DNA of 64,000 nucleotides, taken from positions 90,049 to 154,048 of IMG/VR virus record IMGVR_UViG_3300021420_000016; one strand, written 5' to 3'. Below the pieces are notes generated by a model. That model was given only the letters and a program-made list of their open reading frames with translations. It ran no database searches and was not told where the DNA came from. Within the stretch, counting starts at the first letter, position 1, and each line of letters opens with the position of its first letter. The stretch is from a virus. The position numbers and the translations under genes were made by a program. This document shows, piece after piece, positions 4,432-47,130 of this stretch.

Positions 4432-4670
4432 CAGACCTCGCCGCCTTCGGTGATGCGCTGGGGGATGGCCACGTTGCGGGCCACCTTTCCGGGGTCTCGT
4501 TGTGCAGTTAACTCACTACGCACCGGCAAGGGCGCTCTGTCCGGACTCTAGTCCGACAATAATACGGTTGCAAGTCTGTACTGGGGACTACTTTCAGGTA
4601 TGACACAGTGGTACGATTGCCCCAAGTCATGACCGGACGTCATGACCCATGGCCCTGAACTCCGAGGAGC

Positions 4671-4949: not shown

Positions 4950-4972
4950 TCTCGCACTCCCCCAGCCCGCCA

Positions 4973-7556: not shown

Positions 7557-7816
7557 GACACACGCGCCGGGAGGTCTTCGCTGCTCCATAGTGCCCCTTG
7601 GTCGGGGTGTGGCGTCTTGTCCAGTTCAGCCTCGCGTGCGGCCTTCTCGCGCAGTTCGTCCCGGAGGGACAGCATGCCCTGCCCTTCTGGGCACAACCCG
7701 GCGGGGCGGCGCTTGCGCGCGGCGGGTTCGCACTGATGGCAGCCTCTGCGGTGGTGCTGCCATGTCTCGTCGGCGTCGCGGGCGCTGGCCCGGGCCATGG
7801 TCGTCTCGTAGCTCAT
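7553..7816 (-). CDS. Small Cys/His protein
   Basis: HH..GCHQC..LC; preceded by the AGGCGAAGGG motif at 7825. Confidence 0.6.
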   Translation of the reverse strand: MSYETTMARASARDADETWQHHRRGCHQCEPAARKRRPAGLCPEGQGMLSLRDELREKAAREAELDKTPHPDQGALWSSEDLPARVS

Positions 7817-8859: not shown

Positions 8860-10261
8860 GGCGTGCCGCCTTGCCCGGCGAGGGACACGAGGGCTTTCTC
8901 CCGGCTGGCCATGGTGCGGCCGATGTCGATGCGCGCGTGCAGCGCCTTGAGGGATTCGCGCTGCCGGCGCACCGCGGCGACGGCCTTGCCCCAGGTGCGC
9001 CACTGCGCGTCGGTGCCGGCGATGGCCCGCTGCTTGCGGTCCTCCAGCGTCCCGGCCGCTTCGGCGTATGCGGCAGCGAACGCCTTGCGGAAGTCGCCTT
9101 CGGTGTCGACGGCGAGTTCTTCCAGTTCGGCGAGCAGCGTGATCTCGGTTTCCAGGTCGCGGCCGAGCGCGCCAAGATGCCGGATGACCGCATCCCCGTC
9201 GAAGACGTGCGCGTCACCCAGCGGGCCGGCAGGATTAATGGGCAATTCTTGCCCCCCGCTGCGGGCAGGGCCTTCCACCGGTCGCGCAGGAAGGTGGCGA
9301 GTTCCTCGAACACCTTCTCTTCGGCGTCGCCGCTGGTGCAGACGTGGTCCTCGTCGATGCGCAGTTCCACGGCCTCACTGGCGAGGCTGGCGACCTCTTC
9401 GCGGGTGGTGGCCTGCCAGGCATCGGCGACGATCCGCTGCCAGGCTTCGTCCAGATCAACGGGCGGATCCGCCGGTACCGGGGCGGGCGGGCGGGGCGCA
9501 GGGAGGGCGCGGCGCTGCTGACCGGGGGCGGGCGGCAACTGGGCGGCCAGCCCCTCCCCCAGGGCGCCGGTGACGAGCTCGCGGGGAGTGTTGAGCAGTT
9601 CGAACACCGGCACCGGGTACCGGCGGGTCTTCCCGTCGGTGACGCGGCTTTGGTGGTCGATCCAGAACCGGGCGGGCAGGAAGATCCCGGCAGCGCGGGC
9701 CGCTTCCATGATCCGCAGCTTGTAGGCCAGGCCGATAGTGCCGTAGTAGGACTTGGTGCTGAACAGCCACGTGCCCGCGTCGGGCAAATCCTGCAGCACG
9801 GCGTTGACCCGGGCGACCAGCGCACACGCCTTCGGGGTTTTCAGGGCAGCGAGGCGGGCGCGTTCCTTCCCCCGGTCCGCTTCGGGGAATCCGGCGAGCA
9901 GTGGCGCGCACAGGCACGGCCCACCGGATTTTTGCTCGGTGTCGGAGTCGCACCGGCGCGAGCACCCGGCGGCGGTCCACATCTCATACCACATGGTGAT
10001 GGCGCCGATGTCGGGGGGGATGGTCAGCAGCAGCGCGTCAGCTTTGGTGATCACTTCCCACTGGGCGTGGCCGCGGTTGTCCCACGGGCGGGCGGTGCCG
10101 CCGTACAGGTCCGCGGCCGCTTCGATGGCGGCACGGGAGGCGGAGGTGAACCGGAACGTGCTGATGCTCATCGGTTCGCCGCGTTCATTGCGGATGCCGT
10201 TGCGGATGACGCCGACCTGGTAGCCGAGCCGCTGCCGTTTGAGGAGGTCATGGACTGGCAT
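8477..10261 (-). CDS. phiC31 gp3-like (recombination directionality factor family) protein; conserved part ends near 9240 but no stop until 8477
   Basis: G.IR.G..FRFTSASR..IEAAA.LYGG..PW..QWEVIT, YEMW..GC.RRCD, PCLC, GTW..TKSYY, RRYPVPV.E. Confidence 0.75.
   Translation of the reverse strand: MPVHDLLKRQRLGYQVGVIRNGIRNERGEPMSISTFRFTSASRAAIEAAADLYGGTARPWDNRGHAQWEVITKADALLLTIPPDIGAITMWYEMWTAAGCSRRCDSDTEQKSGGPCLCAPLLAGFPEADRGKERARLAALKTPKACALVARVNAVLQDLPDAGTWLFSTKSYYGTIGLAYKLRIMEAARAAGIFLPARFWIDHQSRVTDGKTRRYPVPVFELLNTPRELVTGALGEGLAAQLPPAPGQQRRALPAPRPPAPVPADPPVDLDEAWQRIVADAWQATTREEVASLASEAVELRIDEDHVCTSGDAEEKVFEELATFLRDRWKALPAAGGKNCPLILPARWVTRTSSTGMRSSGILARSAATWKPRSRCSPNWKNSPSTPKATSARRSLPHTPKRPGRWRTASSGPSPAPTRSGAPGARPSPRCAGSANPSRRCTRASTSAAPWPAGRKPSCPSPGKAARRETGRPEASPGPAPGVRPVPLRRRDSRRAGARRPWPGRLVPPRERPGQAGPLPCGMRRLAPVPRAGRPLTGQGCAHGERPARHCAARRPQSAPGHRVPRRGEAAHPHPRGERRPAERPLRSMRGVAR
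8856..9245 (-). CDS. Helical/coiled-coil phage protein
   Basis: Helical ORF ending LKALHARIDIGRTMASREKA; probable TTG start 9245. Confidence 0.6.
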   Translation of the reverse strand: MPINPAGPLGDAHVFDGDAVIRHLGALGRDLETEITLLAELEELAVDTEGDFRKAFAAAYAEAAGTLEDRKQRAIAGTDAQWRTWGKAVAAVRRQRESLKALHARIDIGRTMASREKALVSLAGQGGTP

Positions 10262-11424
10262 CAGGCCGCCTCCGCCAGGCAGGCTGCGGCGGCGGCGCAC
10301 GCCGCGCACCCGGGGATGGGGGCTTCGCCGTCGAGGTGCAGATCGTGGCCGGCGAGGAGACCGCGGATCACCGGCAGGGACTTGGGCCCGATCCCGGGCA
10401 GTTTGAGGCAGTCGGCGGCGGACAGGCAGGCGAGTTCCGCCAGGGTGTCGACGCCAGCTTCGGCGAGACGAGCCGGGACCCGGCCGTGCAGGTCGGCGAC
10501 CCACGGGGGGCGGAGGGTGCCGTCGGGCAGCAGCGGGCAGGCCACCTCCCCCAGCCTGGCCGCGACCGCGCGGCGGCCGTCGTACAGTTCGACGGCCCGG
10601 CGGAGCCGGTTCCACGCGGCGGCGGCGTCGGCGGGTGAGATGAGGATCAGCCGGTACCCGTTTTTGAACCCGGGCCGCAGGTGCAGCACCGCGGTGGCGT
10701 CGACGGCCGGCATGGCTGCGATCTCCCCCAGGGGGAGCAGCGCTTCGGTGCTGTGCGCGTACCCGGCGAGCTGCTCGGGGACGGTGACATCCAGGTTCTT
10801 GCCGGTTTTGACGTCCACCAGGATCGTCACCGACTGGCCCGGGGCGGCCACGAGGCGGCCGTCGCGGGCGATCACGACCCCGTGCAGGGTGATGATCATG
10901 TCGAGGGTGCCGGCGACGCCGAGGGCAAGGTTGAAGACGATCATTTCGGCGGCGTCGAACCGGGGGGCGAAGTCGGCGGCGAAGGCGGTGAACCCGTCGA
11001 TCATCCACGCGACCACGTCGGCCAGCGGCTGGTCGTCATACGTTGCGTTCGCAAGATGCTCAGGCAGGTCCGGGATGGTGACGTTCGCGCCGTGGCCGGG
11101 TTCGGCGGCCCACAGGATCAGCGCTTCCACGACGGCGTGCACGTAGGTGCCGGCGTCCGCCTTCCGCTGGCGGATGATCTCCGCTTGGTCCTTGGCCAGC
11201 TTGACCCCGGCGGCGGGGCCTTCGGTGCGGATGACCCGGGCGATCTGCCGCCAGTTGGTGACGCAGTATTCGGCGATGACCTTCGCCGACCATGGCACCA
11301 GCCACGGCTTGCCGCAGGTGGCGTCCAGTATGCCGGTGTAAGAGGGCAGGCGGCGGCCGGTGGGCGGGTGAATGTACCAGTGCCCGGTGGCGTCGTGGTC
11401 GCGGACCTGCCCGGCGGTGATCAT
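10261..11424 (-). CDS. PD-(D/E)XK (Cas4-like) exonuclease with C-terminal RNAP-alpha-CTD-like HhH domain
   Basis: LPSYTGIL..KPWLVPW, GTYVH, AGTLD, VDVKTGK, QLAGY; C-terminal LAEAGVDTLAEL..LKLPGIGPKSL..I..LL. Confidence 0.8.
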   Translation of the reverse strand: MITAGQVRDHDATGHWYIHPPTGRRLPSYTGILDATCGKPWLVPWSAKVIAEYCVTNWRQIARVIRTEGPAAGVKLAKDQAEIIRQRKADAGTYVHAVVEALILWAAEPGHGANVTIPDLPEHLANATYDDQPLADVVAWMIDGFTAFAADFAPRFDAAEMIVFNLALGVAGTLDMIITLHGVVIARDGRLVAAPGQSVTILVDVKTGKNLDVTVPEQLAGYAHSTEALLPLGEIAAMPAVDATAVLHLRPGFKNGYRLILISPADAAAAWNRLRRAVELYDGRRAVAARLGEVACPLLPDGTLRPPWVADLHGRVPARLAEAGVDTLAELACLSAADCLKLPGIGPKSLPVIRGLLAGHDLHLDGEAPIPGCAACAAAAACLAEAA

Positions 11425-12648
11425 GCCGCGTGGCCTGTGTCCGCAGGCGCCGCGAGGCCGGCTTGGCGGCCCCGCGTGCCGGTGCCGTGCAGCAGCAGGT
11501 CTTCCAGTGCGGCGACACGCTGGGCGGCGTTGTCCAGCCGGGTTTCGTAGGGCAGTTCGTCGTCGATACCGAGGGGCCCATCGGCCCATGCCTCGTGGTT
11601 GAGCCCGTCGAGGTGCGCGAGGTCGGTGAGGTAGTCCGCCCACGAGCAGCCCAGGCAGATGCCGCAGGTGCAGTCCAGCGGGAACGGGTCGTCGTTCATG
11701 GACGCGTGCACGGTGCTGGCCAGCATGATTTCCCGGACGGCGGGGCCGAATTTCTCCCAGTCCCGGGCCAGCCACCGCAACGTGGTGCGCCGGTCTTCCA
11801 CGGTGGGGGTGCGCGCGGTGACGGTCATGCCGGCACCGCCACGGGCAGTTCACCGGCGTCGATCGCGCGCAGGATCCCCGAGTCGGTGAGCCAGTCCCGC
11901 TGCTCGTCGTATTCGACATCGGGGCCGAACAGGTGGGCGAAGTCGAGCCTGTTCTGCAGTTCCTGGGCGTGCTCTTGCAGCCGGGCAACCTCGGCCCGCA
12001 GCCGGGCGGCTTCCCGGTGTTCGTTCGCCGCGACCCGCTGCGCCATGGCGGCGAAGGTGGCGGCGACGCCGAACGCGGGTGCCAGCATGGGCGGCAGGAC
12101 CCGGCCGTAGGCGCGGGCCCGGCCCATCCGCCAGACCTTGGCGGGGACGCGCCGCGGGGACACCGGGGCATCCGCGATCGGCACGGTCATGAAGTCATCG
12201 AGCGGGGCGGTTGCCGCGACCGGCGGCGCGGCGGGCAGGTATTCCTCGTGTGCTGCGCCACGCTGCTCGCCGGCCAGTCGCTGCATCCAGGCGATGGTGT
12301 CCTCGTCGGCGGGCTGCTGCAGTGGTTCCGCTGTGCGGTGCTGCCCCGCGTAGTCGTAGTCGCGGCTGCCATCCCATCTGTCCGAGCGGACCAGCAGGAT
12401 GAGGGTGACAATCACCGCGACGATGGCGGCGGCGCAGACGATGAGCAGGATCACGCTACGTCCTCCAGGGCTTTGCGCTCCAGCTCGGCGATCTTCTTGT
12501 CCAGTTCCTCGGGCGTGTCGGCGTCCTCGGTGGTGCCGCAGCCCGCCGGGTCGAAACTGTGCGCCGCGGCGGCCCACACGTGGCCGCTGCGGGTCTGGTA
12601 GGCGTGCCAGCCGGGGTGATGCTGGCTGATCTCGGTGAGGGTCATCAC
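11421..12648 (-). CDS. Three coupled hypothetical genes (11421-11828; 11825-12454 with N-terminal TM; 12451-12648)
   Basis: 4-nt start/stop overlaps. Confidence 0.65.
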
Positions 12649-12952: not shown

Positions 12953-12982
12953 AGGATAGGGAAAGAACCGGAAAGTGCGCAA
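12953..12982 (-). promoter_or_regulatory. Leftward promoter for the Cro-like gene
   Basis: TTGCGC-18 nt-TATCCT, 6 nt before the ATG. Confidence 0.5.
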
Positions 12983-13091
12983 GAGATTCTGGGGATGTCT
13001 TCGTGGAAAGTTGGCGTCATACGCGCTACCCTGCCTGGAGATGGCAGAGCCGCCGCATCCCCCGACGACGAAGGCCGCAGGATCCACGGGC

Positions 13092-13676
13092 ATGACAGTT
13101 TTTGCTGCAGACGACGAGCTGGCTGGGTACCGGAAGGGCCTCGGCCGGCACGCTCGCCGCCGCCGCCGGTTCCTGAATCTCACCATGAGGGATGTCGCGG
13201 CCCGCGGTGGCCCGTCGGTGGTGACGCTGCGGCAACTGGAAAAAGGCGACGACGTCGCCTGGCACCCCACTACGCTGCGCAAACTCGACAGGGCGCTGGA
13301 CTGGGTGCCCGGCTCCGCCTCGGCCACCCTGGAAGGCGGCAGGCCGTCGGAACTGACGCTGTCGGTGCCGCCGGACCGCAGCCGGCCGAAGGGCGTTAGC
13401 CCAGGGCTGCGGCTCATGGCCGATATCGCCAGGGTGCTGTACGCCGCCGGCCGCAGCACCGACGAGGTCACCGGCCTGTTCGCCGAACTGGGCCTGCCCC
13501 GGCACAGTGACCTGGAAATCCACGAGTGGATGCTCGTGGCGCAAATGCTTGGCGTCACCCTCGGCACAGTGCTCACGGAGTTCAACGTGGTCACCGCCGA
13601 CGATCTGGCACTGGAGTTCGCCCCGTCCCCCCTGCCGCCGGTGCCTGGTCTGCGTGAGGAGCGCCGCCGGGCCTGA
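13092..13676 (+). CDS. Immunity-repressor-like XRE HTH protein (start uncertain, 13041 or 13092)
   Basis: LGRHARRRRRFLNLTMRDVAARGGPSVVTLRQLEKG..TLRKLDRALDWVPGS; divergent from the Cro-like gene. Confidence 0.75.
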   Translation: MTVFAADDELAGYRKGLGRHARRRRRFLNLTMRDVAARGGPSVVTLRQLEKGDDVAWHPTTLRKLDRALDWVPGSASATLEGGRPSELTLSVPPDRSRPKGVSPGLRLMADIARVLYAAGRSTDEVTGLFAELGLPRHSDLEIHEWMLVAQMLGVTLGTVLTEFNVVTADDLALEFAPSPLPPVPGLREERRRA

Positions 13677-15136: not shown

Positions 15137-15898
15137 CTAAGCAGCCCTGCGGGCGAACTGGGGGCCGAGATCGGTGCGCGATGCCTGGCGGATGGCCCGC
15201 TCGATCCGCGCTTGGCCCGCTGGGTCCTGGAGAACCTTCCAGTAGGCGTACGTCCCCGGCTCCATCCGCCATCCGTGCCCGCTGATCCGCCGGGTGACGA
15301 CGGCACAGCCGGAGTCAAGGGAGGCATTGGTTGCCGCCCAGAACACCGACCCGGAGGTGCGGCCAACGACGGGGGCGAGGTCGGCGACCCAGCCGGCCCG
15401 GTAGTGATCCCAGAACCCCGAGCCGGCGAAGTCCTGCCGGGTGAATGGTGGCCATTGCGGCTCCGGGAGATCCGCGCGGGGCATCCCCGACCATGCGGGC
15501 AGATTGTCCCAGTCTTCGTCGGCATAGAACGGGAAGATGGCGGTGATGCCGCCGCCGTCGCGCCAGCCGAACAGGGAGCCGTCCCGCGGGATGGGCACCG
15601 CCGAGGCGACTAGGCGCGCGGCGTCGCCAGGGATGCCCCCGCCGAGGCTTTCGACCCCGCCAGCGGAATCTGCGATCACGCTATCCCGGGCGTTTTTCCA
15701 GGGCGACAGGGTGATGAACGGGCGCGGGATGCCACTGAGGACGCGCTGCAGAATGTGGAACGCACGGCCGGGGCTGCCCAGGACCATCCGGTCCTGGGTG
15801 CCGTCGGCAGTGACGGGCTCGACCGCGAGCGGGTAGGTGTCGAACAGTGCACTAAATTCCTCGTACAGGGTGCCAGGCATCTGATGTGGCTCCTTCAA
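15137..15898 (-). CDS. Hypothetical protein, Trp-rich
   Basis: 253-codon ORF with protein-like composition; AAGGAG RBS before ATG 15880. Confidence 0.6.
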   Translation of the reverse strand: MKEPHQMPGTLYEEFSALFDTYPLAVEPVTADGTQDRMVLGSPGRAFHILQRVLSGIPRPFITLSPWKNARDSVIADSAGGVESLGGGIPGDAARLVASAVPIPRDGSLFGWRDGGGITAIFPFYADEDWDNLPAWSGMPRADLPEPQWPPFTRQDFAGSGFWDHYRAGWVADLAPVVGRTSGSVFWAATNASLDSGCAVVTRRISGHGWRMEPGTYAYWKVLQDPAGQARIERAIRQASRTDLGPQFARRAA

Positions 15899-15982: not shown

Positions 15983-17182
15983 TCAGCCCACGCGGCCTAC
16001 CGGTTGCGGCCCCAGCAGTACTTCATCGATTCGGTTCCTTCCCCAAGTGCGGCTGCGGCCGGGGAACATTCCCGCCAGCCGGCGGTCCGTTAGGGGTTTG
16101 CCTCTTACGACCGAGCGCCGGTAGGCCTCGCGCGCTTCGCGGGCCTGCGCCTCGCGGTCGAGCGGAACGGCGGCCGCTGCGGGTGGCCCGCTGGCCCCTG
16201 GCGCGCCGGTGGCTTCTGGCGTAGGCTCCTGGCCCGGCGAGCCGGTGGCTCCCAGGGTGGCTCCCGCCACCGGCCCCCCGGTAGAAGCCGGTGGCTCTCC
16301 GGTGGCCTTTCCGATGGCTTCTGCGGGTGGCATGTCCGTGGCACGCCCGCCGGTGGCACGCCGGGTGGCTTCCCTGGCTCCTGGCTCGTGCCGTTTGTGG
16401 CCGATCGCCACGGAGGGCCGATCCTGGAGAACAGCATCGGCGACGGCAGTGGCGACCGCCGACTCCCATCCGCCAGTGAGTCCCTCCCCCACCGCCGCAG
16501 TGACAGCCGCAGTGACAGCGTCGCCCAGGCGCCCCTTGCGGATGTTCGACCGCAGCAGCGCTGGCGCGTGCGCGAAGTACCGCCACCGGCCGCCGTACTG
16601 GGCCCGGGCCAGGTCCCGCATGTGCTTGCGGGCGTCTTCGAGGGCGCAGGCCAGCCGGTAGGACTGGATGTTCTGCAGCACCATGCGCCGCTTCAGCTTC
16701 ACCGTCCCCCACGGGTCGAGCACCCACCTTGCCAGCGGCACCGGGTCGGCGTGTTCCACCTGCCGGATGTCGGCAAGCTGCCGCCACCGGGTGAGCTCCA
16801 GGAACACGATCCACAGCGCGGGCATGATCGCGTGCAGGGTGCGGCCCAGCCAGTCGTGCGGCGGGCTGCCGTGGATGTTGACGTAGATGGTGCCCAGCGA
16901 CAGCGCCCACGCCAGCGCCCGGGGCACCAGGTCGCTGCGCTTGCGCCGGCGCAGCTTGGCGGCCTCGTTCATCAGCGCCAGAATGCCGACGTCGATGCCG
17001 ATGGGGTACAGCGCCGGCCAGCCGGGCAGCCCGTGCGCGGCGGCCTGGCGGGAAACCGTCTGGAACGACACCGCGAACCCGATCCCGGCGACGCCGAGCA
17101 GCAGCGGGTTGTCGGCCAGCGGGCTCGCGGTGACCGCGGCCCAGCCACTTTTCAGCCCAGATTTGGCCTGAATCCTTGACAT
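15983..17182 (-). CDS. DUF2637 / SpdA-like membrane protein
   Basis: GFAVSFQTV..LYPIGIDVGIL..IYVNI..HAIMPALW..RWVLDPWGT..RRMVL; C-terminal HTH (LTDRRLAGMFPGRSRTWGR). Confidence 0.8.
   Translation of the reverse strand: MSRIQAKSGLKSGWAAVTASPLADNPLLLGVAGIGFAVSFQTVSRQAAAHGLPGWPALYPIGIDVGILALMNEAAKLRRRKRSDLVPRALAWALSLGTIYVNIHGSPPHDWLGRTLHAIMPALWIVFLELTRWRQLADIRQVEHADPVPLARWVLDPWGTVKLKRRMVLQNIQSYRLACALEDARKHMRDLARAQYGGRWRYFAHAPALLRSNIRKGRLGDAVTAAVTAAVGEGLTGGWESAVATAVADAVLQDRPSVAIGHKRHEPGAREATRRATGGRATDMPPAEAIGKATGEPPASTGGPVAGATLGATGSPGQEPTPEATGAPGASGPPAAAAVPLDREAQAREAREAYRRSVVRGKPLTDRRLAGMFPGRSRTWGRNRIDEVLLGPQPVGRVG
16180..16370. repeat. Cluster of 8-bp repeats CCGGTGGC (candidate clt / TraB recognition sequences)
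   Basis: Exact at 16206, 16242, 16288, 16299, 16350; inverted at 16266; variants at 16180, 16254, 16311, 16324, 16335, 16362. Confidence 0.65.
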
Positions 17183-17297
17183 GGTGGCTCCCTTATGGTC
17201 TAATCGCGCGCGTGCACGCGTATACGCCTATACCTGTGTACGCATAGGGCGCCTGAACAGGCGCCCCTCCCCCGGGGGAGGGGAGGGGCTGCGGCCG

Positions 17298-18619
17298 TCA
17301 CGGCGCACCCCAGGCCGGGAACGGCCTGCCGTAGCCGGGGCAGTCCGGCGCCCCGTCCCAGTCGAATGGGTCAAAGATGGCCCTGGTGAGGCGAGGTAGC
17401 GGGCCGGTGCTGTAATAGGCCGCGCACCGCTGGGCCAGTTCCGCAGCCTCATCGAGACTGGAGCGCCCAGTGGAACCTAGGCCGGCGGCGAGGGTGTCCC
17501 AGCCTGTGTACACCCACACTCCCCCGCCCGCGGCGGCGGCGGCCGCCCGCTGCTGCCATGCGCAGCCGATGACGTAGCCGTCAGCGTCTGCGGGGCCGCC
17601 GTAGGCGGCGTAGAAGCAGATCACGATTGCGGCGCTGGGGACGCCGGGCCGCAGCCAGCGGACGGCAAACGCCTGGCCGCCGGCGCACCCGTCATCCTGG
17701 GCGACAGCGGCATCCCACGTCCGGTACGGCTCCCCGGCGGGGATCCACCGCTCGCGACCGGGGGCCGGCGCGGGTGCCGCCGGGTGCCGCCAGCGCCTCA
17801 GCACGGTGGCACCCCATTCCAGGACAGGCACGCCGGGAGGCCACCAGGGAAGCCACCCCACGTGCCACCGCAAGCCAATGCCACGACGGCATCAAGAGCC
17901 GCGTCGATGGCACTTTCTGGCTTGGCGAACCACAGCCGGGCGTGGTCCGTGCCGTAGGCCTGCCACGGGCCGCATGCCAGCCGGTACCGGCACGCGACCC
18001 CGTACGAGGGCCACCCGGGCTCCTGCCCGGTGGCGTACAGCCAGACGGTCACCTGAGCACTGGGCTGGCCGGGCCGGGTGAACCGGGCCCCGTACGCGAC
18101 GTCACTGACGCAATAGCGGTCAGACGCAAGCGCGGAATCGCAGGCCTGCGGTTCGCCGCCGTCCGGCAGCCATTTCAGTTCGGCCTGCGCGGGCACTAAT
18201 GCGGGCGCGGGAATTGTCATGACAGGCCTCCTTTATTCCGGCCTTCGCCTAGTGTTGATGACGATGGCGACTATGGCGCCGGCAACGATGGCGACGGCGG
18301 CCACGAGCGGCCAGCCCGACAGCAGTGAATGTGCCGGGGAATGCGCGGCCTGGTGGATGATGATCGTCCGCCGCGGAGCGGCCGCCGGCGGCGTGGCGTG
18401 GCCGGCCCGGGCGGCGAAGCACGCCAGCCCGGCTGCGGCCAGCAGCGCGGCGATCCAGCCGCCGGAATGTGAACACGACGCTGGCAGTGCTGGCGCGGGC
18501 CGCATGAGCCACCAGAGAACGGCGATGATCGCGGCAATGATCGCGGTGGCGAGAACATGGTGGCCGGCCCAGTGGGCGATCACGCCCAGCACGTGGGGGG
18601 CGGTGGCTGTGTTACGCAT
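17298..18619 (-). CDS. Three hypothetical genes downstream of ftsK (17298-17804; 17798-18220; 18233-18619 multi-TM)
   Basis: Coupled ORFs with RBS. Confidence 0.55.
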
Positions 18620-20633
18620 TGGCGGGCCTGCTTTCGGTTGTGCCGCGCAGTTCTGCGAGGAGCCCCGGCAGCTCGTCCGGAAGCACCAGCACGTCCCTGG
18701 CCTTGGAGCCCTCGCTCGGCCCGACGATCCCCCGGCTCTCCAGCAGATCCATGAGCCGGCCGGCCTTGGCGAAGCCGGCCCGCATTTTGCGCTGCAGCAT
18801 CGAGGTGGAGCCGAACTGGGTGCTGACCACGAGCTCCGCCGCCCGGACGAGGTCTTCGAGGTCGTCGCCGATGTCGAGGTCACCCCGGACCGGGCCTTCG
18901 GCCTCGGGGGCCACCTCTACCAGCTCAGGGGGGGCGAATGCAGCCTTGGCCATCTTCACGTAGTCGTGGATCTCCGCCTCGGTGACGAACGCGTTCTGCA
19001 CCCGCAGCGGCTTGCTCACGCCCATCGGCAGGAACAGCGAGTCGCCCTGGCCGAGGAGTTTCTCCGCGCCGCCCTGGTCCAGGATGACCCGGCTGTCGGT
19101 GGCGCTCGCAGCGGCGAACGCCAGCCGGGACGGCACGTTCGCCTTGATCAGCCCGGTCACCACGTCCACCGACGGCCGCTGGGTGGCGAGCACCAGGTGG
19201 ATGCCGGCCGCCCGGGCGAGCTGGGTGATCCGGACCACGGCGTCTTCCACGTCGCGTGGCGCGATCATCATCAGGTCGGCCAGTTCGTCGACGATCACCA
19301 GCAGGTACGGGTACGGCAGGAACACCCGGTCACTGCCCGGAGGGGTCTTCACCTTCCCGGCGCGGACCGCTTTGTTGAAGTCGTCAACGTGGCGGAACCC
19401 GGCGGCCTGCAGGTCGTCGTAGCGCCGGTCCATCTCCCCGACGACCCAGCCGAGCGCCTCGGCGGCCTTCTTCGGGCTGGTGATGATCGGCGTGATCAGG
19501 TGCGGGATGCCCTGGTAGATCGCCAGCTCGACACGCTTGGGGTCGATGAGGATCATCCGCACCTCATCCGGGGTGGCCCGGGCCAGGATCGACGTGATCA
19601 GCCCATTCACGCAGGTACTTTTGCCCGATCCCGTACTTCCGGCAATGATGATGTGAGGCATCTTCGCGAGGTTGGCGACGACCGCGGCACCTTCGACGTC
19701 CTTGCCTAGGCCGACCGTCAGGGGATGGTGGTCGGCCATGGCGATCGGCGAGCGCAGAACGTCGCCTAGGCGCACGATCTCCCGGTCGGCATTGGGGACC
19801 TGGATTCCGACGGCCGACTCCCCTTCGACGGGGGACTGGATCCAGATGTTCGCGCTCTTCACTGCGTACGCGATGTTTCTGGTGAGCTGGGTGACCCGCT
19901 CCACCTTGACGCGGGGCCCGAGGGTGACCTTGTAGAGGGTGACGGTCGGCCCGCGACTGAACCCGGTCACTTGGGCGTCCACGTCGAATTGCCCGAAAAC
20001 TTCGTCGATAGCCCGTATGACGGTGTCGTTGGCTTCGGTGCGCGGCGCGCTCGCATACCCGGTGACCAGAGAGCCGGGACCGAGGGGCTGCTGGGCGGCT
20101 CGCGGCGCAGTGTGCGGCACCGGCTCGTAGCGTTCGGCGAGGATTTCCGCGTGCACCGGGGTGTCCGGCGCGGAATCTTCCGGCGGCGCCGCGGCGCCGT
20201 TTCCCTGGCCGAGCGGGCGCAGCTCGCCGCGCAGGGTGCGGTGGGCGGGGGTGGCGTGCTCGATGCGCCGGTCCCACAGCAGCGGGAAGCACAAGGCCGT
20301 GCCGCCGGCCCACAGCAGCCCTTGCAGGATCCAGCCGGCCAGCCCGTGGAACGGGCCGTGGACGGAGGCGACCGGCAGCCAGATGGCCCCGCCGGCCCAC
20401 AGCCGCAGCGCCACCATTTCCATGGCCGGGTGGCTGCGCACCGCGTGAATGGCCCATCCGGTGGCACCGGCGATGGCCACGACGGGGATCCCGAGGGCGA
20501 GCAGGCCGGCGGCCCAGTGCCCGAAGACGGCCACGGCGTCCGCGGCGGCCATCCAGGCGAAGGGCACCAGGACGGGCCGGTGGGCGTGCACCACCGCACC
20601 GGTCTCTGTCGCTGCCCGCTCGCCGTCACGCAT
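18612..20633 (-). CDS. ftsK: FtsK/SpoIIIE DNA translocase (TraB position)
   Basis: N-terminal TMs; [54 protein letters not shown]; gamma domain [25 protein letters not shown]. Confidence 0.95.
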
Positions 20634-20639
20634 GGCTGA

Positions 20640-22324
20640 TTAACGCCTCCCCGCCGGCGTCGGGTCGCCGCCCGGGCCGGGGCCGCCACCGCCGAGCGCG
20701 GGCCGGGTTTGCGGGCGGCCGAAGCTGCCCCGCGTCGCCTTACCCTTGCGGCGGCCCCACAGGCTGCTGGCGAACCGGCCGACACCCAGGCCCTGGGCCA
20801 TGATCGGCTGCGCGACGGGCAGCGCGCCTTCGCGCTGCTCGCGGCGCTTGTGCAGCCCGCGGACAAGGAGGAACAGCACGGCGACGCCGATCACGAACGC
20901 CACCAGGTACACCTCCTGCTGGTGGGCGGCCTGCCCGTGCGCCGCAGGCGCGGCGTGGATGTGGGTGATCGCCTTGCCGATCTCCTTGCCGGTGCGGGGC
21001 AGCAGCGCCGCACTGCGGTGGGCGACCTGCGGCCAGTCGGCGACGGTGACCGCCATGGTGAACCCGAAGATGCCGCAGATGAACGGGGTGATCACCGGGT
21101 GGTACTTGTGCGCCAGGAGGGCCTCGAACAGGAACCCGACTGCGGCGATGGCGTCCACCGCCAGCAGGGCGGTCATGCCGTTGTCGCTGTTGGCCTGCCC
21201 CGCTGCGGCGTACAGCAGCGGGGGCAGCCCGAACGCGAGGAAGAACCCCAGAGGGCCGGCGAACCAGGCGATCAGCCGGGGCGCCTTCCGGTAACGCCAG
21301 CACAGGCCGATCACGACCGCACAGGCAAGGGCGAGAACCAGTGGCGGGCTCATCGTGTATTGCCCTCCTTCAAGGGGGTTAGAGGATGCCGAGCCAGATC
21401 AGGGCCGCGATGACCGCGGCGAGGGTAAGAGCGAACAAGGCCAGGGCGACGATCTGCCGGAACGGCCTGACGACCAGCCACAGCCAGATGATCGCGGGGA
21501 TCATCGCTGGGATCGCCCACCACGTGTGGTAGCGGGCGCCCCACTGCTCCGACCAGCCGCCGTAGTGGCCTTCGGGCACCCATGCCCGGCCGTCGCGGTA
21601 CTGGATCTGGCCGGGGATGTGCACGGTTGCGCCGCACGCGGTGCAGCGGACGCCGGCTCCGCCGATCGAGGGGGGCAGCCAGTGTTCGATGCCGTTGATG
21701 AAGCCGCCTTCGTTCCTGCGGGCCATCCGCCACGTCAGCCGCGCCGCGATGACCGCCTGGCGCAGCGCGCTGAGCGCCTGCTGCCGCGCGGTCACTGCGG
21801 CAACCTCGGCTGCCGGGGCAGGCGGCGCGGCCGGGAAAGCGGCAGGCTCAGGCTGCGGCGGCTCCGCGGGCACTTCAGGGCTAGGACCCGGGGCGGCCCC
21901 GGCGTTCCACCCGGGGCCGTCATCGCCGTCCCCGAACACGGCATCAAGGAAGTCGGTGTCATGACTCATTACTTGCCCCGCTCCCGCCGGCGGCGCGCCT
22001 CAGGCCACCAGTCAGGGCCGCGTGGAACGCGGCCCACAGGTCCCGGCCGGTGGGGATGCCACCCTGGTAGGTCGGCGGCCGCTTCACCCTCGCCGGCCGG
22101 ACGCTCGCCGCTGCCGCCTGGATGACGCCGGCGACTTCGGCGTGCAGCAGCATCCACTCGGCGGTGGGCCGGTCCTTGCGCGTCTTGGCCAGTTCGGACA
22201 GCAGGGCGGCGATGGCGGTGTGCACCGCCTCCGCGCAGTTGCCGTCGTTCAGTTCGTCGGCGATGGCCGCCGGGGCGACGTCCACGGCGCGGCGGGGCTT
22301 GTCGTCTTGCGGACCGGTGGCCAT
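20640..22324 (-). CDS. Three genes upstream of ftsK: multi-TM protein 20640-21353, TM protein 21379-21969, small protein 21959-22324 (Spd-like)
   Basis: Hydrophobic helices, co-oriented with the translocase. Confidence 0.6.
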
Positions 22325-22356
22325 CTCAGCGTTCCTCTCGTGGGTTCAGGTGCGGG

Positions 22357-23283
22357 TTAGGAGAACCGGGCCGGTGCGCCGGTGCGGCGCAGGGTGCCGA
22401 TACGCTGCTCGAACCGGTAGTACCGCTCGTTGCCGAGTTCAGTTCCGGCGTAGCTGCCGAACGGGCCACCCGGACCGATCTCGCAGTGCATTCCGGTGCC
22501 GCCGTAGCGGGGGCCGTAGCGCTTGCGCGCCAGCCGTTCCTGCTCGGCCAGTTGCTGCCACCTGGCGCGGGACCAGTGGCAGTTCTTCGCGGACGCAACC
22601 GGCGGCGCCGCTGGGGGCCCGGCGCGGCAGGTGCCGAGCCGGCCCGGTGCCTGGTCGCCGTGGCAGATGGGCGCCTGCGGGTCCGGCGCCCAGTAGCTGA
22701 CCGTTCCTGAGCCTTCACAGAACGCGCGCCGCGGCGGCGGGACGCCCACGGAAAACTCGAACGTAGTCGTGGCCGCCGAACCGAACGTGGTGCTTACGTG
22801 CACGTTGTGCCCAGGCGGGGTGCCCTCGCGCGCGGTGCCGCTGGTGCGGCCGTAGGCGGTGACGGTGGACATGAACCCGTACCGGCCGCGTTCGGCCCCG
22901 AGGGGGACGTGGACGGTGAACGTCGAGGTTGCCGACGAGTGGGCGGCCACCCAGCCGCGGGTGCCCGGGACGGTGAAGGAGATCCAGGACCGCGGCGTGG
23001 AGTACTGGGGGGTGTCCAGGTCCGGCAGGTTCTCGACGCCCATGTCGAGCCGCTCGTAGCCGCCGTGCTTGCCGCGGGTGGGGTTGACCACCGACACCGC
23101 GACGGATGCGGACTGCCCGGGTTGCAGGGTGCGGGTGACGCACGCCGGGCCGGCCTGCATGCCCGCAGACACTGAGCCGGTGGCCACGGCGCCGGGCGGG
23201 CCGCCAGTGGCCATTGCGGCGGCGGCGGCACCGATGCCGATCACCTTGGCCACGGCGTGGACGAAGCTGTGGAACCAGCCCAT
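22357..23283 (-). CDS. Secreted protein with beta-sandwich/Ig-like region
   Basis: Signal-like N-terminus; Thr/Val/Ser beta pattern (FTVHVPLGAERGRY). Confidence 0.55.
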   Translation of the reverse strand: MGWFHSFVHAVAKVIGIGAAAAAMATGGPPGAVATGSVSAGMQAGPACVTRTLQPGQSASVAVSVVNPTRGKHGGYERLDMGVENLPDLDTPQYSTPRSWISFTVPGTRGWVAAHSSATSTFTVHVPLGAERGRYGFMSTVTAYGRTSGTAREGTPPGHNVHVSTTFGSAATTTFEFSVGVPPPRRAFCEGSGTVSYWAPDPQAPICHGDQAPGRLGTCRAGPPAAPPVASAKNCHWSRARWQQLAEQERLARKRYGPRYGGTGMHCEIGPGGPFGSYAGTELGNERYYRFEQRIGTLRRTGAPARFS

Positions 23284-23289
23284 GGCTGA

Positions 23290-23529
23290 TCAGCCCCGGC
23301 CCTGCATGCCGTACCGCTGCGCCAGCCGCCGCTCGCGGCGGCTGTTACGGGTGGCGAACCGCACGATGCCGTACAGGACAAGAAGGAAGAGTGCGGCGGC
23401 GATATAGCCGCCCTCCTTCGGCGTGACCGCCCCTTGGGTGACATGTGTCGCGAGGTGCTGCGCCGGGCGCAGGAGAGTGTGGTGATGCCGGGCCATCAAG
23501 GTGACGACCAGGTGGACGAGGGGATGCAT
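23290..23529 (-). CDS. Small TM protein
   Basis: GAAAGG RBS; single TM. Confidence 0.55.
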   Translation of the reverse strand: MHPLVHLVVTLMARHHHTLLRPAQHLATHVTQGAVTPKEGGYIAAALFLLVLYGIVRFATRNSRRERRLAQRYGMQGRG

Positions 23530-23557
23530 CGGAGGGGTTTCCTTTCAGGAGCTGGGG

Positions 23558-24103
23558 TTAACAGGTGGCAGTCAGGGCGTAGTGGTAATGGCTGGCCGCC
23601 CACGGGGAGTCCTCGATCGCGTTGGCGACCGCCTGGGCGTTGTTTCCGGCGCGCAAGGCGGCGAGGATGCCGCCGTAGCTGCGCACCGTCTGGACGGTGT
23701 AGCGGAGGCCGATCCGGGCAGTGGGGAACGCCCACGCGCCGGTCGCGTTGTAACCGGGCCATCCGGCACCGGGGCCGGGGTTCAGGTTGAGCGGGTTGTT
23801 CTCGGCCTGGTTGCCGAACCCGCCACCTTCGGCGGTTTCCCAGGCGATCACCGCGTTGCGGTCGCACCGGGTGAGCGGTTCGGGGATGTCTTGCAGGAAC
23901 GCCCGGGCCCACGAGGCGCGGGTCGACAGGTTCCCCGGGTTCCCCGCGGAGGCTTGTACGGAGGTGAGCATGCCGTTCTGGACATGGTGGCCGTGGTGGT
24001 GGCCGTGGGTTTGGCTCAGGCCAGCGAGGCTGAGGCCTACGGTCACCGCAGCGGCGGCCCAAGCCCCCGTGTGACTCTTCTGGACGTAACGGCGGCGGCT
24101 CAT
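23558..24103 (-). CDS. Secreted lysozyme-like/cell-wall hydrolase candidate
   Basis: Signal peptide; WA..FL..NAVIAWETAEGG..NNPLN..YGGILAALR..SPWA pattern seen in actinobacterial lysozyme-fold domains. Confidence 0.55.
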   Translation of the reverse strand: MSRRRYVQKSHTGAWAAAAVTVGLSLAGLSQTHGHHHGHHVQNGMLTSVQASAGNPGNLSTRASWARAFLQDIPEPLTRCDRNAVIAWETAEGGGFGNQAENNPLNLNPGPGAGWPGYNATGAWAFPTARIGLRYTVQTVRSYGGILAALRAGNNAQAVANAIEDSPWAASHYHYALTATC

Positions 24104-24105
24104 GA

Positions 24106-24261
24106 TCACAGCCCGTTCACGAACGTCTGGATCGAACCGCCAGCCTGCTCCAGCAGGCCCAGAAGACTGTGGACTGCATGACTGGCGGCGGCGGGCTGGG
24201 TGAACAGGTACCACGCCAGAAACACGACGATCGCCCAGCCCAGGACGCTCCGGATTCTCAT
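24106..24261 (-). CDS. 51-aa membrane peptide (not in ORF track)
   Basis: Translated by hand: MRIRSVLGWAIVVFLAWYLFTQPAAASHAVHSLLGLLEQAGGSIQTFVNGL; ATG overlaps upstream stop. Confidence 0.75.
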   Translation of the reverse strand: MRIRSVLGWAIVVFLAWYLFTQPAAASHAVHSLLGLLEQAGGSIQTFVNGL

Positions 24262-25103
24262 TGCGCACCTACCGGGTTTTCTGCCGCCTTGATGAGTGCG
24301 GCGACGCCTGCTTCCCAGTTGCCCCAGGGAGGCTGGCTGATGATCGAGACGCCGGCGGCCTTGGTCACCTGGCCGCTGGCGGGGACGTACAGTTCGTCGC
24401 CGGGGTCCGGTGCGACGTCACCCCAGCGCTGCGCGGGGATCGAAGTGCACGCCGCGTACTTGGCGACATGGCCGCACGACACACGGAGGGCCCCGGCGGC
24501 GGTGGCCAGCGTGACCGACCAGGCCTCACAGCCACCACCCATGGCCACCTGTGAGCCGCGGCGCGGTGAGGGGCAGTCCCCCCACTGGATGGCTGACCGC
24601 GTGATGATCCCCGCGATCATGCCCGGACGGGCGGGCGGCGGGTCCGCCCGCAGCCACGCCTGGGCAGCGGGCAGGACGCTCGGCGGCCCGGAGAGGCCGT
24701 CGAGGCCGGTGAACGTACAGGTAAGCCGCACGGGGACGATGGCCAGCGCCGGCGGGAAATGGTCCAGTGCCACCTGGGCGCCGGCGTAATCCAGTTCCCC
24801 AGCGAGCTCGCGGCTCGCGGCATCCCCCAGTGCGCGGGCCTTATCGCGGAGGTGATCGACCCGGCCAAGCCATGCGCCGGTCGCGGGATCGCCTGCCGAA
24901 GCGGGCGCGTTGCGGATCACGGCCCGCACTCCGGCCAGGCAGCCGGACGCGTCGCGCACTGGGGGGACGCTTCTGCCGTCAGGGGGCTCCTCGGCCTGGC
25001 CGGCGACGCCGCAGCCGGCCACCGCGACGGCGGCGAACGCGGTCCCGGCGGCGAGCGCGACGCGGGCCCTCATGGCCGCCGCCTCCGCAGGAAGGGAAGC
25101 CAC
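24258..25103 (-). CDS. Putative lipoprotein
   Basis: AVAVAGC lipobox. Confidence 0.55.
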   Translation of the reverse strand: MASLPAEAAAMRARVALAAGTAFAAVAVAGCGVAGQAEEPPDGRSVPPVRDASGCLAGVRAVIRNAPASAGDPATGAWLGRVDHLRDKARALGDAASRELAGELDYAGAQVALDHFPPALAIVPVRLTCTFTGLDGLSGPPSVLPAAQAWLRADPPPARPGMIAGIITRSAIQWGDCPSPRRGSQVAMGGGCEAWSVTLATAAGALRVSCGHVAKYAACTSIPAQRWGDVAPDPGDELYVPASGQVTKAAGVSIISQPPWGNWEAGVAALIKAAENPVGAQ

Positions 25104-25247
25104 AGCACGCAGATGACGCCGACACCGGCAACCATCGTCACGGTCGAGCCGTAGACCACTTCACGGGCGGCTATCGCCAGCACCGCGAGCCAAAGGATCT
25201 TCCACATGACGGCTGAGCGCTCCTTCGAAGTCTGCTGTTCTTTGCCG

Positions 25248-25283
25248 GCCCGGCCCCCCAGAGGCCAGTCTGGGGGGCCGGGC
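25248..25283. promoter_or_regulatory. Perfect 15-bp inverted repeat in the leader of the transfer operon
   Basis: gcccggccccccaga-ggccag-tctggggggccgggc. Confidence 0.75.
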
Positions 25284-25445
25284 TGACACCATGACGGATC
25301 AGAGTGCTGTTCTTCTGGATCGAACTGACACTATCATGGAGTACATTGACACAGACGTCAAGCCCAAGGCAGACTTGAGTAGGCACTAGAGACTGGAGCA
25401 TGCTGGAATGGACCTGGATCAAACTGGATCAACAGGAGGCCAGCC

Positions 25446-25799
25446 ATGCTTCAGCCGACCCTTCAGCGCACCCGTCATCTCAGCGGCTGCAACGGGGGCC
25501 CATGCCCCCACGTGCACGAGACGACCATCCCCGGCATCTGGGCCATCCAGGGGGAGCGCCCCGAGATGAGCACCCGCACCGGCTGGATCACCGTCCCCGG
25601 CCTGGAGCCCACCGCAGCAGAACTCGCCGCGATGGCCACGGTCGCGCAGATCCCCGGCCACGAGAACGTGGTCCTCGTGCTGCAGGAGACCCTCGACGGC
25701 TACGCCCGCACCGGGCGTGTGCGCGAGGCGCACGACTTCGAGACCACGGTCCTGGTGCCGGCGCACATCCTCGACCAGGCCCTGGGGGCGCTGGTATGA
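25446..25799 (+). CDS. Small protein with CxGGxCP motif (partner of DUF6879/Xre systems)
   Basis: AGGAGG RBS; SGCNGGPCPHVHET..IQG. Confidence 0.7.
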   Translation: MLQPTLQRTRHLSGCNGGPCPHVHETTIPGIWAIQGERPEMSTRTGWITVPGLEPTAAELAAMATVAQIPGHENVVLVLQETLDGYARTGRVREAHDFETTVLVPAHILDQALGALV

Positions 25800-26368
25800 C
25801 TCCCGCAGACTTCGACGCCGCCTTCAATGGCGACTGGGAAACCGTCGCCCGGCTGGAGACCCATCAGGTGTACATGGTGCCCGGCGAGGAAGCCGCCCTG
25901 GAGGCGTTCCGTGCGGGCCAGCCAAGGCCGGTCTGGTCGGTGCGCACCGATCCGTGGCTCGCCCGGATCGCGCTCACCTCCGCACCGGAGGAACTGACCG
26001 GCAAGCCGCCCAAGCGGTGGCTGCGGTGCCGCATCGTGCAGCATCCGCGGAACCTCTACACCGATCATGAGATCGAGGGCTACCGCGAATCGCAGGCCGC
26101 CGGCGAGCAGATCTTCATCGCCCCCCTCGAAGCCGACCCGGCCCTTACTGGCCTGCGCCAGGACTTCTGGGGCTTCGGCCTCGGTACCACCGGCGCGTTC
26201 GTGATCATCATGGACTACGATGCCGGCGGTCACTGGCTCGGCGCCGAGCGCACCACTGACCCGGTCATCCTGGACCGCTGCCTGAAGCAGTGGAACCTGG
26301 CCCGGTCGCATTCGGTGCCGCTCAACGAATACCTCGCACCCGGCAAGGAGGCGCGAAAGGCTGCATGA
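25796..26368 (+). CDS. DUF6879 family protein
   Basis: F...F....ARLET...Y....E, R.RIV..P...Y, AGEQI, DFW motifs. Confidence 0.8.
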   Translation: MTPADFDAAFNGDWETVARLETHQVYMVPGEEAALEAFRAGQPRPVWSVRTDPWLARIALTSAPEELTGKPPKRWLRCRIVQHPRNLYTDHEIEGYRESQAAGEQIFIAPLEADPALTGLRQDFWGFGLGTTGAFVIIMDYDAGGHWLGAERTTDPVILDRCLKQWNLARSHSVPLNEYLAPGKEARKAA

Positions 26369-27237
26369 CCGATGCGCAGGAGCAGCAGCGACAGCACCGG
26401 GCGGCGCTCGGTGCTGAGTTGCGGCGCCTGCGCGAACGGGCCGGCCTGAGCCGCGACCGGCTCGCCCGCGACCTTGGCCCGGGGTACAGCAAATCGACAC
26501 TCCTGCGCATCGAAGCCGGCGGAACCAAAGGCGGTGGGCCGCCCTCCTGGGCGGACGTCAAGGTCTGGGCTGAGGCTTGCGCCGCCGCCGGCCCCGACAT
26601 GGCGTATCTGCGCACTCTCGCCGACTTCGTCCTCGGCACCCAGGCGGCCTACCAGGACCGGGGCGGCCTCCCCGCCGTCCAGGAGCAGGTCGGCAAGCAA
26701 GAAGCCGCCGCCATGACGATGCGGAACTTCAGCAACTGGGGGATCCCCGGCCTGCTGCAAACCCCCGGCTACGCCCGCGAGGTGCTGCGCCTCGCCGACA
26801 TGTGGGGCAGCGAGGACGTCGACACCGCCGCCGCGAAGCGCCAGGGCCGCCAGGTGATCCTGTCCGACCCCCGCCGCAAGCTGGAGTTCCTCGTCACCGA
26901 ACGGGCCCTGCGCTGGCCCCCGGTCCCCCCGGCCGAACTGAAGGCCCAGCTCGACTACGTGGCTGCGGTGATGGCGTGGCCCACCATCACCGTCCACGTG
27001 ATCCCCGACAACGCCACGCCCCGCGCTCTGGGCATGTGCCCGTTCGTCTTGTACGAGGATCTGGCCAACGGCGGCTCCCCCTACGCCGAGGTGGAAATGT
27101 CCCACCGGGCCGACAGGGTGGGCACCCCCGAAGACGTGGCCCTTTACCGCAAACTGTTCGGCCTGCTCGATGAGACGGCGTTGCGTGACGGCGAGGCGGC
27201 CGAATTCGTGCGCCGGGTAGCCGCCTCGCTGTCGTGA
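26365..27237 (+). CDS. Xre HTH + DUF5753 regulator (Scr1/WhiJ-like)
   Basis: LGAELRRLRERAGLS..STLLRIEAG; IPGLLQTPGYAREV, RQGRQ.IL, E.ALRW, QL, Y..LF..L..AL. Confidence 0.92.
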   Translation: MTDAQEQQRQHRAALGAELRRLRERAGLSRDRLARDLGPGYSKSTLLRIEAGGTKGGGPPSWADVKVWAEACAAAGPDMAYLRTLADFVLGTQAAYQDRGGLPAVQEQVGKQEAAAMTMRNFSNWGIPGLLQTPGYAREVLRLADMWGSEDVDTAAAKRQGRQVILSDPRRKLEFLVTERALRWPPVPPAELKAQLDYVAAVMAWPTITVHVIPDNATPRALGMCPFVLYEDLANGGSPYAEVEMSHRADRVGTPEDVALYRKLFGLLDETALRDGEAAEFVRRVAASLS

Positions 27238-47100: not shown

Positions 47101-47130
47101 GGCCGTACGGTCATTGTCGTTCCCTTCGCC

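Follow-up and report, generated by a model that had tools for sequence, protein, structure and literature searches.

A conserved accessory operon with an FtsK-type DNA pump in a large temperate actinophage: a possible device for moving phage DNA across septa or between cells

The DNA analysed here, a window of 64,000 nucleotides, forms the last 64 kb (record positions 90,049 to 154,048) of the IMG/VR virus record IMGVR_UViG_3300021420_000016, which has a length of 154,048 bp and a CheckV completeness of 98%; positions given below are those of the window unless the record is named. It carries a leftward operon that encodes an FtsK-type double-stranded DNA (dsDNA) translocase together with membrane and envelope proteins, and possibly specifies a phage-owned device for septal or intercellular DNA transfer. 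Because the DNA has about 69% G+C, we called genes by third-position GC (GC3). The record itself is a true temperate tailed phage, a large one infecting soil actinomycetes, with genes for portal/Mu F-type, SU10-type capsid, XkdF protease, neck and tail-fibre families, two Phage_holin_2 genes in the structural arm, 38 tRNA genes and a sole tyrosine integrase (record 69335-70516), which lies 36 kb from the operon; other families in the window comprise DnaB, a C5-methylase, ArdA, an exonuclease and a metallophosphoesterase. This is in line with an initial annotation made from the letters of the window, which had described the genome as phage-like and suggested looking for capsid and terminase genes in the rest of the contig: capsid, portal, protease and holins are present and, since virion genes exist, its alternative of a plasmid or integrative and conjugative element (ICE) devoid of them falls away. 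No terminase was seen in the record, so that the missing ~2% probably holds the terminase together with the start of the portal gene. The record begins (1-555) inside the portal/Mu F gene and ends (window 63243-64000) inside a PAPS-reductase-like gene.

The operon consists of one string of minus-strand genes running from 25207 down to 15137, several of which overlap or are near-contiguous, and the components listed in the initial annotation turned out to be real by GC3 calling, Pfam searches and structure models. Its core comprises i) a 121-aa soluble protein (g21959, 21959-22324), ii) a 196-aa protein with two C-terminal transmembrane (TM) segments (TM2, 21379-21969), iii) a 237-aa five-TM protein (TM5, 20640-21353), whose stop codon lies 6 nt before the ftsK start, iv) the FtsK-type translocase (18612-20633), built of a 4-TM N-domain, a short linker and alpha, beta and gamma domains, the gene of which overlaps the next one, and v) a protein (15983-17182) joining a DUF2637 membrane domain (Pfam 66 bits) to a low-complexity linker and a C-terminal helix-turn-helix (HTH)-like segment. 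The upstream part of the operon encodes a lipoprotein (24258-25103), a putative membrane-anchored wall hydrolase (23558-24103, with its real start at about 24103) and an Ig-fold protein (22357-23283), and a regulator pair is transcribed divergently. No significant direct repeats bound the module, no att boundary was found and no integrase lies within it, which bears out the earlier view that the module has no integrase, Rep or att site of its own.

Judged from its sequence, the pump combines a genuine FtsK motor, the DNA-motif-reading gamma domain included and intact, with a phage-specific four-TM anchor. It exceeds the Pfam cut-offs for PF17854 (75 bits), PF01580 (222 bits) and PF09397 (73 bits), matches the E. 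coli FtsK model PRK10263 over the motor (positions 886-1352 of 1355) and finds the FtsK structure 2IUT in the PDB with an E-value of 1e-110; its gamma domain is almost identical to that of cellular actinobacterial FtsK. Residues 1-190 form four hydrophobic segments in the hydropathy profile and have no Pfam match, and before residue 140 none of 80 cellular loci matches. Nine phage relatives keep this N-domain with invariant Pro24, Trp27, Trp85 and Gly110, and it appears to be unrelated to the cellular 4TM domain and conserved among phage copies only.

Concerning the ancestry of the pump, its match to the TraB model NF041214 reached 60.3 bits against a cut-off of 800, and the similarity to pIJ101 Tra (25% identity over 220 aa) is confined to the ATPase core; the FtsK motor of plasmid pSROS01 is 68% identical over 476 residues. 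In a tree of 110 motor domains, calculated by a quick method, with long branches and with midpoint rooting for drawing only, the chromosomal FtsKs of the class Actinomycetes formed a supported clade (99*), and the phage copies, other IMG/VR copies, pSROS01 and pVMKU branched outside of it as a basal grade. The position of the phage and plasmid proteins outside the chromosomal clade argues against a recent capture from a host, and we read the pump as an old FtsK lineage tied to mobile elements, which would be neither a recent host capture nor TraB.

The FtsK-based retrieval from IMG/VR yielded 74 loci. About ten loci (L011, L012, L017, L018, L021, L023, L030, L033, L034 and L101, the last being a locus from assembly) have a full-length phage-type FtsK after homologues of TM5, TM2 and the 121-aa protein, often together with the hydrolase and with the Xre-DUF5753 regulator read divergently. 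These loci maintain the core order g21959-TM2-TM5-FtsK-(small genes)-membrane-HTH at identities of 24-72%, and TM5, for which a family alignment could be made, lies directly beside ftsK in every relative. Syntenic homologues of g21959 (35-49% identity) are present in L017, L021, L023, L034 and L101, those of TM2 in L011, L017, L018, L030, L033 and L034. With regard to the rest of the genomes, G004 (113 kb, terminal repeats, complete) has both FtsK and structural genes in common with the record and G001 (110 kb, complete) only the non-structural neighbourhood. Among ten records sharing a head-tail protein with this phage, FtsK was found only in G004, and four complete or near-complete structural relatives (G006, G007, G009, G011) are without it; besides, the orientation of the module with respect to the exonuclease gene is opposite to that in L023 and G004. 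The synteny in related phages about which the initial annotation had asked is therefore seen in the core order, but not in these four relatives; its counter-scenario of an att-bounded insertion absent from relatives largely agrees with our data as to absence, but not as to att boundaries. Since structural relatives lack FtsK and no att ends were found, the module amounts to an accessory cassette of mosaic type, not to an inserted ICE; its ends are not recognisable.

A tyrosine integrase accompanies FtsK in 5/6 FtsK-positive records and is present in 1/6 FtsK-negative structural relatives (Fisher P = 0.08), an association that is suggestive only. A megablast search of the module against phages gave no match, and no related loci were found with the 857-aa structural protein. 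One alignment (A6) taken as a possible structural gene was rejected as a homing-endonuclease-like open reading frame (ORF). An ORF in the capsid region of two loci (L003 11935-12885 and L087 18006-18773), which is common to G004 with 59% identity and has DUF559/REase-like motifs, is probably an intron-borne homing endonuclease and not a capsid exon.

The second conspicuous component is the DUF2637 protein, as a gene for a polytopic membrane protein with an HTH lies 1-3 kb downstream of ftsK in every module locus. Some DUF2637 homologues carry precomputed HTH_24, LacI or HTH_23 matches, and the C-terminus of the window protein aligns with their HTH; a sequence search with this C-terminus against the PDB returned nothing. 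The linker-coding part of the gene harbours an array of CCGGTGGC on the plus strand (190 bp at 16181-16369) with five exact copies and about six variants, nearly all co-oriented, and the window as a whole has 23 exact copies compared with 10.4 +/- 3.2 expected, six of the 23 being counted in this region. For 8 of 11 loci, the densest cluster of co-oriented 7-mers was found within the membrane-HTH gene, a gene accounting for 4-11% of the locus (Poisson-binomial P ~5e-8), and this makes the cluster a candidate loading site. The repeat motif is different in each phage, the DUF2637 gene of L214/L215 for instance having seven copies of CCGTCAG, and L017 has its copies in one reading frame, whereas those of the window, L018, L033 and L214 fall into two or three. 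Such an array would look like a private cis-acting site of the clt or centromere type, clt sites being described as diverse sets of direct and inverted repeats that adjoin tra (PMC3583192); the sober alternative is a fast-evolving repetitive linker. DUF2637 domains also occur on 312 actinomycete plasmids, where their neighbours include a T4 coupling protein and MobF relaxase or, on pSROS01, an FtsK operon, which links the domain by context to DNA transfer.

Between the DUF2637 gene and the 191-aa gene upstream of it lies a perfect 10-bp G/C palindrome, CCCCTCCCCC / GGGGGAGGGG (17263-17289), as an intergenic hairpin, each strand of which bears an outward-pointing GGGNAGGG, the KOPS consensus of E. 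coli. The hairpin probably resembles a terminator, notable though it is beside a gamma-bearing FtsK. Apart from this palindrome, neither polarity nor enrichment was detected for KOPS, SRS or pSVH1 TRS motifs.

Turning to the envelope proteins, the 181-aa wall-hydrolase candidate consists of a TM anchor, a His-rich linker and a domain of about 120 aa, and belongs to a family of at least 202 homologues, none of which is named; Glu92 is invariant in the family alignment, which also has a Cys pair. Neither Pfam nor a Foldseek search of the PDB with its AlphaFold2 (AF2) model (pLDDT 65) gave a significant match. Nevertheless, the 21 best matches in an all-PDB comparison of the model were all peptidoglycan or chitin glycosidases, among them GH73, phi29 gp13, FlgJ and AtlA (VIA-align; Z 5.1-5.7, root-mean-square deviation 3.2-3.9 A, 95-115 residues), which is consistent with, and short of proof for, a lysozyme-like fold. 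The lipoprotein (about 271 aa from a Met at ~25073) has a signal peptide and the lipobox VAGC, and no match in Pfam, PHROG or NCBIfam; an ESM Atlas search with it and with TM5 gave no usable match. In L101 its position is occupied by an NlpC/P60 gene, which adjoins the homologue of the 181-aa protein. The 308-aa Ig-fold protein is N-terminally anchored or secreted and Cys-rich in its C-terminal half; in the AF2 model residues 40-182 form a beta-sandwich with Z-scores of 8-9.9 to Ig folds of the PapD, ASH and carbohydrate-binding types, and only seven related clusters exist among 1.84 billion representatives.

The initial annotation had placed the module next to TraB and Spd proteins of mycelial actinomycetes, a kinship that the accessory proteins do not support: with pIJ101 as the sole reference for SpdA, SpdB and KilB, no blastp match was better than E 0.08, and NCBIfam, including its transfer-protein models, gave 0 matches. 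The PADLOC defence models did not match them either. A use of the operon as the lysis cassette of the phage was rejected because the two Phage_holin_2 genes sit in the structural arm. No endolysin could be recognised in the whole record, which has neither Amidase_2 nor NlpC/P60; unassigned proteins are encoded at record 44373-47308, and one of these may be the lysin.

The operon faces a control region (25208-25445) with a sigma-70-like site at 25361-25333 on the minus strand, which is a consensus match only. On the other side, the plus strand encodes a 117-aa protein (25446-25799; GC3 0.91, homologue in L018) as the first gene of the divergent unit, followed by a DUF6879 protein (~25805-26368, Pfam 104 bits) and its partner, an Xre-type regulator (26365-27237; HTH_31 51 bits, DUF5753 122 bits), whose likely start overlaps the DUF6879 stop. 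The divergent DUF6879-Xre/DUF5753 regulator described before is hence well founded, and the 117-aa gene preceding it had been overlooked. The combination of an Xre HTH with DUF5753 is the architecture of SCO4543 (WhiJ) and SCO4441 (Scr1) (PMC10364602); the usual DUF397 partner of such regulators was not found here. A smaller Mu-portal phage (L214/L215, contigs of ~50-63 kb) has the same divergent pair and no FtsK at 1900-11005, and its facing operon contains an HTH_17/MerR-like gene, WhiB, a 669-aa protein without Pfam match, YdjM and DUF2637; such a pair may serve these phages quite generally as an early-operon switch. Another contig of 105 kb (L212), again with this pair and with WhiB, carries a gene for DUF3631 (RepAM-type, an AICE replication family) at 19487-20806, about 8 kb from a DUF2637 gene. 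A second Xre-type HTH gene of the window (12975-13676, 233 aa), 2 kb to the left of the module and divergent from a 65-aa gene (12451-12648), has homologues adjoining the module in L011 and L012.

To our knowledge, no conjugation system other than the Streptomyces type transfers dsDNA, and this type depends on one FtsK-like pump. As represented by pIJ101, pSVH1, pWTY27 and the actinomycete integrative and conjugative elements (AICEs), this TraB/Spd/Kor/clt system resembles the module in having a membrane-anchored hexameric dsDNA pump of the FtsK/SpoIIIE family, an operon that includes small membrane proteins, a repressor-type regulator transcribed divergently and a cluster of short direct repeats nearby. 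In its layout, a membrane dsDNA pump with wall and membrane proteins under such a regulator, the module is analogous to tra/spd/kor, and to this extent the initial annotation is supported. In contrast to TraB/Spd, where the pump gene comes first, the module has its pump, with FtsK alpha, beta and gamma domains, as the last of the core genes; its accessory proteins show no kinship, its repeats are found in another gene at a distance of 2.3 kb, a dedicated putative wall hydrolase and a membrane-HTH protein are present, and the whole belongs to a virion-forming phage. An AICE unites Int, Rep (RepSA, RepAM/DUF3631 or Prim-Pol) and Tra in one att-flanked element of 30-60 kb (Ghinet 2011, PMC3218068); here the tyrosine integrase lies 36 kb from the module in a 154-kb virion-encoding genome. 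Among the 93 record proteins scanned, small ORFs being outside the scan, no ParA, ParB or Rep family and no AICE-type Rep (RepSA, RepAM, Prim-Pol; PF12307 and PF09250) was seen.

Related motors are those of plasmids that combine FtsK with DUF2637 (pSROS01 of Streptosporangium roseum, Micromonospora pVMKU and large Streptomyces linear plasmids); they group with the phage copies outside chromosomal FtsK, and on pSROS01, as in the phage module, DUF2637 is part of the FtsK operon. These proteins differ from phage FtsK in their length of about 810-830 aa, and the annotation of at least one of them includes a cellular-type 4TM domain; the phage N-domain, TM5, TM2 and g21959 have no plasmid counterparts. 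The pSROS01 locus (L008, 28 kb) contains one operon of BldC, DUF2637, SsgA, an ATP-binding protein and full-length FtsK at 62-10149, and so joins developmental and division genes with a pump. In pVMKU (L009) and a further plasmid locus (L010), FtsK is followed by genes annotated as 'Pycsar system effector family protein', and the pVMKU ftsK gene also adjoins a type IV coupling protein gene.

Cluster J (Omegavirus) mycobacteriophages are likewise large temperate actinophages with an FtsK-derived ATPase of about 50% identity over alpha and beta, but Courthouse gp201, with 442 aa, matches only residues 215-556 of our query, without a membrane-anchor or gamma match, and nothing like the membrane and wall partners is annotated next to it. 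In Streptomyces phage papers, FtsK-like genes are listed without a function (PMC11536984, PMC13587820). Articles that refer to the work of Zhong et al. on pZL12/phiZL12 (J Bacteriol 2010, 192:3747; cited by PMC4487206, PMC3583192 and PMC5431353) report that conjugation is possible for an element that forms virions, and one of them mentions ParAB for pZL12 (PMC4487206); PhiNon1 of Nonomuraea gerenzanensis is a plasmid-phage with an ssgA-like gene (PMC5431353). Compared by these descriptions only, both are actinomycete elements that carry virion genes, as our record does, together with plasmid-type functions, yet they are described as self-replicating elements of 59-90 kb, whereas a tyrosine integrase is encoded in the record and neither ParA nor ParB was seen among the scanned proteins. 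As for layout, the module can also be set beside a cellular system. Ausmees and co-workers are said to have found in 2007 that the small membrane protein SmeA of Streptomyces coelicolor targets the FtsK/SpoIIIE-like pump SffA to sporulation septa; there, too, a membrane protein gene would lie immediately upstream of the gene for a membrane FtsK-like translocase, while SffA reportedly has no hydrolase, HTH protein or regulator in its context. What is distinctive in the phage module is the true FtsK with gamma, the conserved partner set of its own, the putative wall enzyme and the membrane-HTH gene with its private array.

These findings are best explained by an accessory operon that is conserved among large actinophages, most of them temperate, has been shuffled horizontally and would build a phage-owned membrane DNA-translocation device. 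That this device would serve septal or intercellular dsDNA transfer, in analogy to TraB/Spd, is the reading that we tentatively prefer. It would be analogous and not homologous to TraB/Spd/Kor/clt and would have been built independently from the mobile-element FtsK lineage. According to this model, the DUF2637 membrane-HTH protein would bind the private direct-repeat array in its own gene and tether phage DNA at the membrane, although the array could also be bound by the FtsK gamma domain. The five-TM and two-TM partners would place the FtsK hexamer at a septum, a cross-wall or a hyphal contact, the wall enzyme would open the peptidoglycan locally and the hexamer would pump double-stranded phage DNA through. 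In consequence, phage genomes might move between hyphal compartments, into spores or into neighbouring hyphae, and a spread of phage DNA without virus particles is possible. A further-reaching version, in which large temperate actinophages turned an FtsK lineage distinct from both chromosomal FtsK and TraB into a self-contained apparatus that pumps the whole 100-150 kb genome, so that virion-free spread evolved independently of TraB/Spd, appears rather doubtful to us.

Several observations weigh against transfer as the function of the operon. There is no homology to TraB, Spd or KilB, and the genome shows no conspicuous polar motif of the KOPS, SRS or TRS type. Immediately 3' of ftsK there is no repeat array, the 11-copy CCGGTGGC-like array being situated 2.3 kb downstream. 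Arrays of this kind lie in a low-complexity protein linker, and since one frame is shared by 4/5 exact copies in the window (peptide ATG) and by 5/5 in L017, a repetitive linker may have produced them as a side effect. The genes of the envelope set, which encode the hydrolase, the Ig protein and the lipoprotein, are outside the universal core, and for the hydrolase the fold matches are modest (Z < 6). The module has no cultured member, and a tblastn search for the hydrolase family in 50,697 phage and 72,556 plasmid records found nothing, as did a pattern scan of GTDB genomes.

The main rival to a transfer device, although rather unlikely in our view, is a takeover of the host cell cycle. FtsK and its partners would then act on septation of the host or on the clearing of its chromosome, or they would work with the host XerCD to resolve and segregate phage or prophage DNA, for example by keeping septa open, clearing DNA from closing septa or ensuring that the genome enters spores, and no DNA would pass from cell to cell. 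A contact between FtsK gamma and XerD is part of established FtsK biology, and the host-like gamma domain should read host-type motifs and could contact XerD. The WhiJ/Scr1 architecture of the regulator, a family tied to development, the WhiB gene in the same operon of related loci and the association of FtsK with SsgA, BldC and DUF2637 on pSROS01 fit this scenario, as do the ssgA-like morphogenes on PhiNon1 and pNon2 (PMC5431353). However, the host already has an FtsK, the phage N-domain has no counterpart in any of the 80 cellular loci, and the private repeat array and the membrane-tethered HTH protein that accompany the pump are left unexplained.

Distinctly unlikely is the idea that the genes do not form one machine and that unrelated accessory genes merely share an operon, such as envelope proteins for lysogenic conversion, a spare FtsK for replication or concatemer handling and a membrane regulator. 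It would agree with envelope genes that differ between relatives, with the soluble FtsK of cluster J mycobacteriophages, which comprises only alpha and beta and has no such partners, and with FtsK-like genes being listed as possibly replication-related in Streptomyces phages (PMC11536984). Such a patchwork does not account for an order of at least five core genes that is kept at only 24-60% identity across phages with different structural genes, for TM5 being beside ftsK throughout, or for the conserved membrane anchor and gamma domain of the phage protein.

We regard it as highly improbable that the operon is a prophage system for superinfection exclusion or defence, whose membrane proteins and DNA pump would stop incoming DNA or drive it out. 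The more frequent integrase in FtsK-positive records and the resemblance of the motor to the FtsK-like part of SspH and mads_8 (PADLOC) speak for it, but the SspH match reflects the shared ATPase only, none of the accessory proteins matched in PADLOC, and a full alpha/beta/gamma FtsK is unlike known defence ATPases. A genuine AICE, a TraB/Spd module of a Streptomyces plasmid or an independent ICE inserted in the phage is scarcely credible, as its divergent repressor, membrane translocase with FtsK/SpoIIIE domain and small membrane proteins are outweighed by a TraB score far below the cut-off, the restricted similarity to pIJ101 Tra, the lack of Spd/KilB similarity, of att repeats and of an AICE-type Rep among the scanned proteins; the AICE-type label given at first is hence to be corrected, as the module is neither AICE nor TraB.

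We know of little that explains how phages infect multicellular, compartmentalised hyphae. If a transfer device is indeed encoded, the operon offers a gene set for testing whether phage genomes move through the mycelium or into spores without particles, and whether FtsK itself, beyond TraB, has been recruited for intercellular DNA transfer. Whatever the function, our data define a conserved set of proteins without a name (TM5, TM2 and g21959), a family of wall-enzyme-like proteins with at least 202 members, all from metagenomes, and DUF2637 as a membrane domain joined to a putative HTH with a recurrent private repeat array.

The remaining genes of the operon are small. Its first gene encodes a 45-aa peptide with one hydrophobic segment, predicted to be a single TM (25070-25207, GC3 0.82), and a 79-aa single-TM protein, recognised by GC3 and its hydrophobic segment, lies between the hydrolase and Ig-protein genes (23290-23529). 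Two ORFs between ftsK and DUF2637 had been omitted from the otherwise confirmed gene list: a small membrane protein (18233-18619), whose start overlaps the ftsK stop and which is backed by frame-specific GC3 and by weak homologues downstream of ftsK in L012 and L017, and a 140-aa protein (17798-18220; GC3 and ORF) with relatives in L017, L023, L030 and L033. The latter is paralogue-like (38% over 48 aa) to the product of the following gene (17298-17873, GC3 0.84), a protein of up to 191 aa with an uncertain start and homologues in L017, L023 and L028. A 253-aa gene (15137-15898), likewise an addition to that list, has homologues downstream of ftsK in L011, L050 and L053 and probably forms the tail of the operon.

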